DNA from: Phycisphaerae bacterium
GTDB taxonomy: Bacteria; Planctomycetota; Phycisphaerae; UBA1845; UTPLA1
Reading direction: 5' to 3'
Length of the DNA stretch: 24,906 bases
Assembly (NCBI GenBank): GCA_046754005.1
Contig: JBHHUV010000001.1
Coordinates: 1 to 24,906 of the forward strand
Shown here: one piece after another, positions 2,466 to 3,284 of the stretch
Layout: the number at the start of each line of letters is the position of its first letter
Position numbering within the stretch: the stretch's first letter is position 1
Position numbers and translations under genes: made by a program
The notes under the pieces: generated by a model
What the model was told of the DNA's origin: nothing
What the model saw: only the letters and a program-made list of their open reading frames with translations
Databases searched by the model: none

Positions 2466-3284
2466 ATGTCAAGATTGTCTGCACAAGTCAATAAAGCATT
2501 CACGCCGTCGGAACGACGGTCTATCATTGATGCGCTGGCTCTGGCACAGGAGGAGATGGATCGTATCTCCGTTGCCTACGAACGATCTGAGGGTGAAGAG
2601 GAAACACGGCTGTCGGTGGAATTGGAAGCCGTACACCGCCGGGTCATGGATCTGAATTGCCAATACCAAACCAGCCTACCGGTGGTGCCACTGTCACGGT
2701 GTCCTTTTACGGGTGAGGTGCTTCGGCATTCGATCGACCTCTTTGGGATCGACGGACCGTGGTGGAATTATCAGGTGCCCGCCCGGCCCGTGGAAGAGCT
2801 GCCATCGACGTATTTCGCCCTGGCCGGATCTCTGAAACTGAACCGGGAGCCGGATGCGGTTCCATTCCTGTGCAAACCTGGTCCGGAGGTACCCTATGTC
2901 GTTCCGCACCTGATCGGTCAACCGGAGATCAAGGCGGTGATTTCCTCGATTGCCGTGGGACCACATGAGGGATTTCCCATTTTCTATTTTTCCCAACCGA
3001 CGCGGTACGAAATCCTGCGGGTGAATACGTGGGGTCTGGATTGCTACGTCGCCGAGGATCCGTACGGTGCGGGATACTCTGCCCAGACTTATGACGTTGA
3101 AGCCGATTATGATTTCGATCTGGAGAAGTGGATCCGCGGCGGAAAGCTGTTGTGGATCGCCCCGGGAGACAGATCATTGACACTCCGCAGCACCACGGGT
3201 TCATGTCCGTATCTTGGACTCGAGGGGCGTTGTTATCCCGTGTGTATTCAGAACGGCAGGACATGGAGTAGCATGATCAGATAA
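2466..3284 (+). CDS. Hypothetical cytoplasmic protein, candidate immunity protein (272 aa)
   Basis: ATG 2466 is preferred over GTG 2406 because the extra N-terminus is unstructured. No signal peptide. Motif-like segments include LSRCPF, DGPWW, PGPEVPYVVP, NTWG, DFDLEKWI and GKLLWIAPGD. It lies directly downstream of the toxin gene. Confidence 0.7.
   Translation: MSRLSAQVNKAFTPSERRSIIDALALAQEEMDRISVAYERSEGEEETRLSVELEAVHRRVMDLNCQYQTSLPVVPLSRCPFTGEVLRHSIDLFGIDGPWWNYQVPARPVEELPSTYFALAGSLKLNREPDAVPFLCKPGPEVPYVVPHLIGQPEIKAVISSIAVGPHEGFPIFYFSQPTRYEILRVNTWGLDCYVAEDPYGAGYSAQTYDVEADYDFDLEKWIRGGKLLWIAPGDRSLTLRSTTGSCPYLGLEGRCYPVCIQNGRTWSSMIR

Follow-up and report, generated by a model that had tools for sequence, protein, structure and literature searches.

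The question raised by this locus is what is encoded by the gene that directly follows a toxin-like nucleotidyl cyclase domain in the genome of a Phycisphaerae bacterium, and in particular whether its product could be the immunity protein of that domain. To our knowledge, the cyclase toxins EF, CyaA and ExoY need calmodulin or actin and come with no immunity gene. In a first-pass annotation of the window (the whole stretch of DNA analysed, 24,906 nt of contig JBHHUV010000001.1), the protein in question, P0001, was put forward as a candidate cognate immunity protein and as a possibly undescribed inhibitor of EF-like cyclases. The features of the locus are collected in Table 1.

Table 1. Features of the DUF8367 locus, in nucleotide positions of the window.
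Feature	Position	Strand	Remarks
Carrier protein P0002, 5' end lost at contig edge	2..2323	+	Logan contig L085 adds 166 aa
Conserved helical 'pre-toxin' domain, P0002 aa 140-310	419..931	+	A4 profile matches 34/80 loci
GGLTDDG[VA]R linker repeats, from helical domain to tip	992..1375	+	Similar DDxxR repeats in L001, L049 and L057
EF/ExoY/CyaA-like nucleotidyl cyclase tip, C-terminal, P0002 aa 471-773	1412..2323	+	Predicted from profile and model
Intergenic gap, 142 nt	2324..2465	+	Upstream gene ends at 2323
DUF8367 (PF28040) gene, P0001, 272 aa, candidate cognate immunity protein	2466..3284	+	N-terminal antiparallel helical hairpin aa 14-69, beta-rich core aa 73-268
Third gene, P0003, 498 aa	3316..4812	+	Conserved N-terminal ~350-aa domain, then GYF_2 and zinc ribbon

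The open reading frame of P0001 begins with ATG, runs to a stop codon after 272 aa and lies where it had been annotated, as a co-oriented gene 142 nt 3' of the toxin. A site scan found no promoter-like or terminator-like sites inside the gap, and across positions 2200-3500 the count of such sites was not above chance. The highest hydropathy of any 19-aa segment of P0001 is 1.07, and the protein is therefore without a signal peptide, as the annotation had stated, and also without a membrane segment; it is cytoplasmic. The dense W-, P- and C-containing motifs that had been remarked upon (the protein has 6 W, 22 P and 7 C) turned out to be the most conserved blocks of its family, namely RCPFTG, DGPWWNY, LCKPGPEVPYVVP, NTWG, WIRGGKLLWIAPGD and CPYLGL. 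The further claim, that P0001 belongs to no named family, needs amending. Precomputed Pfam annotation places it in PF28040 (DUF8367), as it does all 120 listed homologs, and the family profile A3 matches the window at E 3e-106. What stands is that no function has been assigned: DUF8367 is a catalogued family, undescribed as to function only. Comparison with the other Pfam models (Imm families included), NCBIfam, PADLOC and PHROGs gave no match, the sequence profile of P0001 had no significant match in the PDB, and DUF8367 was named in no paper found by a literature search.

The predicted structure of P0001 has a pLDDT of 96. Searches with this model in Foldseek PDB, VIA wide, VIA re-ranking and the ESM Atlas gave matches confined to the helical hairpin, and an ESM Atlas feature search gave none, so far leaving the beta-rich core with no recognised fold relative in these whole-model searches. 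The hairpin alone matches the N-terminal coiled coil of GreA/Gfh1, at a level common for helical hairpins, whereas these searches gave no match between the C-terminal domains of GreA/Gfh1 and DUF8367.

The nature of the upstream domain is better defined, and the annotation of an EF-like tip is upheld by both profile and model. A profile built from 53 homologs of P0002 aa 471-773 (alignment A2) matches PDB chains of the ExoY modules, EF and CyaA (E 3e-6 to 8e-3). The RP...K...K.K[ST] motif is aligned significantly with these toxins, while the TGDxD motif aligns with their TADYDL only in a second, non-significant stretch. The AF2 model of the tip (pLDDT 90.8) has significant Foldseek matches to ExoY, EF and CyaA toxins only, with a probability of about 1.0 but a TM of just 0.23-0.33. 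The tip retains R63, K81, K86, K88, D171, D173 and H206 (alignment numbering), and from the profile and Foldseek matches together it is therefore related to the EF/ExoY-type cyclases, with the lysines, the Asp pair and the His kept. Membrane segments are visible in the carrier as extended by the Logan contig (L085:2-2821). DUF8367 and the cyclase tip each occur once in the genome from which the window comes.

Linkage between DUF8367 and the cyclase domain was examined on about 190 loci in three independent collections. Within the first 80 loci, searched with profile A2, a cyclase-like ORF stands beside DUF8367 in 78 (one of the exceptions sits at a contig edge), and the DUF8367 domain starts between -63 and +119 nt from the stop codon of the cyclase gene. 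The second collection was seeded by the cyclase motif GKP[FY]TGDxD and has DUF8367 directly downstream in 33 of 37 loci, the other four having divergent, non-terminal cyclase domains. The third, seeded by divergent DUF8367 members, has a cyclase-like ORF in 67 of 74 loci. With duplicates removed, and across Bacteria and Archaea, 128 of 137 distinct DUF8367 genes have such an ORF in their locus, and for 121 of the 137 it ends between -200 and +300 nt from the DUF8367 domain. The linkage of DUF8367 to the cyclase tip is near-obligate, on the same strand and immediately downstream, which bears out the expectation that homologs of P0001 consistently follow domains with the RPTN/KxKS/TGDxD motifs.

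Two cases require separate mention. An apparent fusion of the cyclase and DUF8367, P0154 (1119 aa, L125:8001-11360, on a 1.87-Mb long-read contig), was rejected as a frameshifted reading, the last third of its cyclase domain lying in another frame. Nocardia sp. (G003, L203/L206) has an open frame of 5247 aa with an internal EF/ExoY-like domain (E 2e-49), and its DUF8367 gene comes after a YbaB-like gene, about 2.5 kb from the long ORF.

The proteins that carry the cyclase tip differ greatly from one another. Those of the first collection are 800-2000 aa long and without a Pfam domain; in many, a signal peptide and one membrane span precede a K/R-rich stretch, and others have 6-8 spans. In the carriers of L071, L010, L017, L032 and L057 a signal peptide is followed by an extracellular region, a GNIPGP motif, a single span and a K/R-rich stretch. 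From this topology the helical domain and the toxin tip would therefore lie in the cytoplasm of the producer. The membrane-anchored carrier of the window belongs to no known secretion system and is no recognised secretion substrate, which counts against reading P0001 as an immunity protein.

Other carriers are of well-known delivery types. In four loci (L183, L186, L189 and L190) they are proteins of 400-460 aa with an N-terminal Tox-PAAR-like domain (PF13665, E 1e-35 to 1e-40) and a short cyclase tip, and in L187 and L200 they are RHS-repeat proteins (E 1e-37 and 1e-21). In the L200 carrier a DPLGM motif, typical of the place where an RHS core ends, precedes hydrophobic stretches that lead to the tip. 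Homology between the short tips (alignment A7) and the tip of the window was established by hhalign (98.6%, E 4.8e-16), and the short tips match ExoY, EF and CyaA at E 1e-7 to 8e-5 with both motifs covered. The locus of the isolate Geobacter sp. OR-1 (L186) runs from VgrG through DUF6484, DUF2169, a 353-aa gene, the PAAR-like/cyclase effector and DUF8367 to a HEAT-repeat protein, and, judged by established knowledge of T6SS loci, it has the textbook layout of a T6SS effector-immunity cluster. As a rule, polymorphic-toxin carriers have their immunity gene immediately 3' of the toxin tip. The pairing of tip and DUF8367 on such bona fide carriers, both PAAR-like T6SS and RHS proteins, supports the proposal that P0001 is a cognate immunity protein. 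The cyclase tip and DUF8367 move as a cassette across unrelated carriers, which include PAAR-like, RHS, membrane-anchored and archaeal proteins. The gene directly 5' of the PAAR-like/cyclase effectors (L186:2646-3707, L183:1457-3568, L189:1864-3555 and L190:2284-3558) has a partial match to a ketoacyl-synthase N-domain, and its product may have an accessory role.

The third gene has a narrower distribution. Its N-terminal domain belongs to no Pfam family, and homologs of this domain were found in 71 of the 137 cases, with membrane-anchored carriers only; none was seen in the PAAR and RHS loci. The third gene is therefore tied to the membrane carrier, and DUF8367 to the tip. In loci lacking the third gene, a double zinc-ribbon protein of ~230 aa comes next, or DUF8367 itself is joined to a zinc ribbon, TPR repeats or a beta-clamp, as in L035:7980-9776, where it is fused in frame with a zinc ribbon and domains 2 and 3 of the DNA polymerase III beta-clamp.

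Larger operons are common around the membrane-anchored form. About 30 of the 80 loci have an ABC importer (SBP, permease and ATPase) and a Reg_prop propeller, and others have zinc-ribbon proteins. A seven-gene arrangement, in the order SBP, double BPD_transp_1 permease, ABC ATPase, Reg_prop propeller, membrane carrier with cyclase tip, DUF8367 and zinc-ribbon third gene, is seen in L003, L005, L030, L041, L050, L024 and others (for example, L127:2201-11913), from Bathyarchaeia, Caldisericota, Ignavibacteriales, Deltaproteobacteria and Firmicutes, with the ABC genes and propeller downstream in the Firmicutes version. A second operon type (L128:3236-17764 and the Syntrophomonadaceae loci L011-L028) starts with two small genes (~190 and ~165-185 aa), the carrier, DUF8367 and the third gene, and continues with two proteins (one of them zinc-ribbon), LemA, DUF2207 and a zinc-ribbon protein. 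For the genes at 4691-9780 of the window itself (zinc-ribbon/Pro-rich, lipoprotein and TPR-CHAT), no conserved equivalents turned up among the 80 related loci, where orf4691 gave three short matches of zinc-ribbon length only and the other three genes none; these genes seem to lie outside the cassette.

DUF8367 is a widespread and strongly conserved family. Its sequences fall into 395 clusters at 90% identity, with 503 representatives at the 50% level, and among species-representative genomes there are 225 matching stretches, from many bacterial phyla as well as Bathyarchaeia and Methanomicrobiales; no copy was found in IMG/VR, the PLSDB plasmids or the INPHARED phages. On average, two DUF8367 proteins share a pairwise identity of 0.41, compared with 0.33 for two cyclase tips and 0.27 for two third-gene products, and DUF8367 is the more conserved of the tip-partner pair in 1234 of 1485 locus pairs. 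Invariant residues include R17 (in the hairpin), D91, D216 and C247, with C79, D96, R78 and R107 near-invariant. The DUF8367 proteins from PAAR and RHS contexts are of full length, share 25-34% identity with P0001 and have the same 24 invariant positions. Distance correlations do not discriminate between the neighbours (0.47 for DUF8367 with the cyclase, 0.49 with the third gene). Immunity proteins usually, though not obligatorily, diverge as fast as their toxins or faster, so a partner more conserved than its toxin is unusual for an immunity protein and counts against this reading. Such conservation would nevertheless fit an inhibitor matched to a conserved catalytic cleft, or an immunity protein that is an enzyme.

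In two cyanobacterial genomes (G001 and G002; loci L185 and L192) an intact DUF8367 gene adjoins an aminotransferase, and the cyclase profiles A2 and A7 matched nothing in either whole genome; by analogy, these copies behave as orphan immunity genes would. L132 has two DUF8367 copies, most loci having one. In P0037, Imm35 and DUF8367 are fused, and the protein comes straight after a Gln_amidase (papain-fold toxin 1) glutamine-deamidase tip; the contig with this order (L126:2-1588) is short, and a cyclase may precede the deamidase. The tip itself is also exchanged. The L049 protein (L049:241-2778) has the helical pre-toxin domain and the DDxxR repeats but ends in an HExxH domain, with DUF8367 kept and no cyclase detected in the genome, and this retention counts against DUF8367 being cognate to the cyclase. 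In L035 the upstream protein has the cyclase domain and then an HExxH domain at its C-terminus, and a domain of ~270 aa with HExxH (HELGH) that replaces the cyclase tip in L049, or follows it in L035, points to tip polymorphism on the carrier.

Taken on the evidence of gene position and comparison, P0001 probably serves as a cognate immunity protein by binding and blocking the EF/ExoY-like cyclase tip, since its near-constant position behind the cyclase domain, on any delivery protein, makes an immunity protein and natural inhibitor the most likely reading. We infer physical binding and inhibition for P0001, with the contact made either by the hairpin with R17 or by the beta-rich core. The protein would be made in the cytoplasm of the producer together with the toxin, would most likely bind the cyclase domain 1:1 and block its catalytic cleft, and so the producer and its kin would be spared the consumption of ATP and flooding with cyclic nucleotides. 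The main competitor, which we regard as unlikely, is that DUF8367 is a regulatory or structural subunit (an activator, a brake or a signal receiver) within a signalling or abortive-infection system built on an endogenous, membrane-anchored cyclase, at least in the subfamily of the window. The carriers with a signal peptide, single span and K/R-rich stretch, or with 6-8 spans, would place the cyclase in the cytoplasm as such a system demands, larger operons are kept in both Bacteria and Archaea (an ABC importer and Reg_prop propeller, or zinc-ribbon proteins), and both the conservation of the third gene and the high conservation of DUF8367 would also suit it. However, DUF8367 also stands behind PAAR-like and RHS tips, where a signalling role would be senseless, it occurs as an orphan in genomes with no detectable cyclase, and the third gene and ABC genes track the carrier rather than DUF8367. 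A closely allied idea drawn from the membrane topology and the ABC/propeller operons, that DUF8367 is the partner of a receptor-type cyclase, was demoted by the PAAR-like, RHS and orphan contexts.

The two other alternatives keep the link with the toxin and change what DUF8367 does. Were it an enzyme that removes the toxin product (for example, a cyclic-nucleotide phosphodiesterase) or reverses its effect, and never binds the toxin, its conservation above that of the toxin and its polar residues, invariant across phyla and contexts, would be explained, and orphan copies would protect against any such toxin. This is very unlikely, as the sequence and whole-model fold searches gave no match to an enzyme family, conserved His are few for a metal-dependent phosphodiesterase, and the invariant positions are mostly P, G, W, Y and F, as is typical of a rigid scaffold. 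Still slighter is the chance that DUF8367 is a chaperone or adaptor that folds, stabilises or loads the toxin tip and does not neutralise it. The tight translational linkage agrees with such a role, as do the interaction modules (zinc ribbon, TPR and beta-clamp) that occur fused to DUF8367 or in its neighbours, but adaptors track the delivery domain, and their genes usually lie upstream (in L186 this place is filled by DUF2169), whereas DUF8367 tracks the tip across carriers and also occurs as an orphan. Returning to an immunity protein as the preferred reading, a more far-reaching version of it is doubtful, though less so than these alternatives: that DUF8367 is an active-site-directed inhibitor, using one constrained fold against EF/ExoY-type tips from Archaea to Proteobacteria and perhaps against the medical class II toxins, and that the carrier and third gene of the window, with the ABC importer and propeller of their relatives, represent an undescribed form of toxin deployment in monoderm bacteria and archaea.

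Known systems offer partial parallels. The Tde2-Tdi2 pair of Agrobacterium is reportedly a T6SS PAAR-like (DUF4150) effector-immunity pair that uses a DUF2169 adaptor and has a nuclease tip. The order in L186 is similar in having VgrG, DUF2169, a PAAR-like effector with a C-terminal tip and then a small cytoplasmic gene, but it has an EF/ExoY-like cyclase tip where that pair has a nuclease, the gene behind the effector encodes DUF8367, and the carrier of the window differs further in being membrane-anchored. Tas1-Tis1 is said to pair a T6SS (p)ppApp-synthetase toxin with an immunity protein, and the likeness would be that of a nucleotide-converting toxin (as predicted here) draining the ATP of its target, next to a dedicated cytoplasmic neutraliser (here putative); the folds and chemistry are unrelated to those of DUF8367 and of the cyclase tip, whose activity is a predicted one. 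With anthrax EF, Bordetella CyaA and ExoY/MARTX ExoY (PDB 1K90, 1YRT, 5XNW and 8BJJ) the tip has catalytic motifs and fold in common, and it differs from them in being compact (~285 aa) and in being paired with a dedicated prokaryotic protein that would inhibit rather than activate it. Pfam immunity families such as Imm35, SUKH and others (PMC3482391) resemble DUF8367 in their position after the tip, cytoplasmic location, orphan copies and fusion of immunity domains, but there is no sequence relation between them, and DUF8367 is far more conserved and mostly present once per locus. Neither adenylyl cyclase nor edema factor is mentioned in the available part of the polymorphic-toxin survey of Zhang et al. 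2012 (PMC3482391), and a literature search found no paper on an immunity protein for EF-like cyclases, nor one on EF/CyaA/ExoY-type cyclases as weapons between prokaryotes.

On the sequence comparisons above, it is likely that DUF8367 and the cyclase tip constitute a new toxin-immunity family. If DUF8367 is an immunity protein, a function would be given to a DUF with about 500 sequence clusters in Bacteria and Archaea, and this would be the first family of natural protein inhibitors of EF/CyaA/ExoY-type cyclases, of relevance to the medical toxins. It would also mean that cyclases of this type serve as weapons between prokaryotes as well, and are active without calmodulin or actin. The interest of DUF8367 thus lies in what it would imply, a class of cofactor-independent, prokaryote-directed class II cyclases together with their natural inhibitor.
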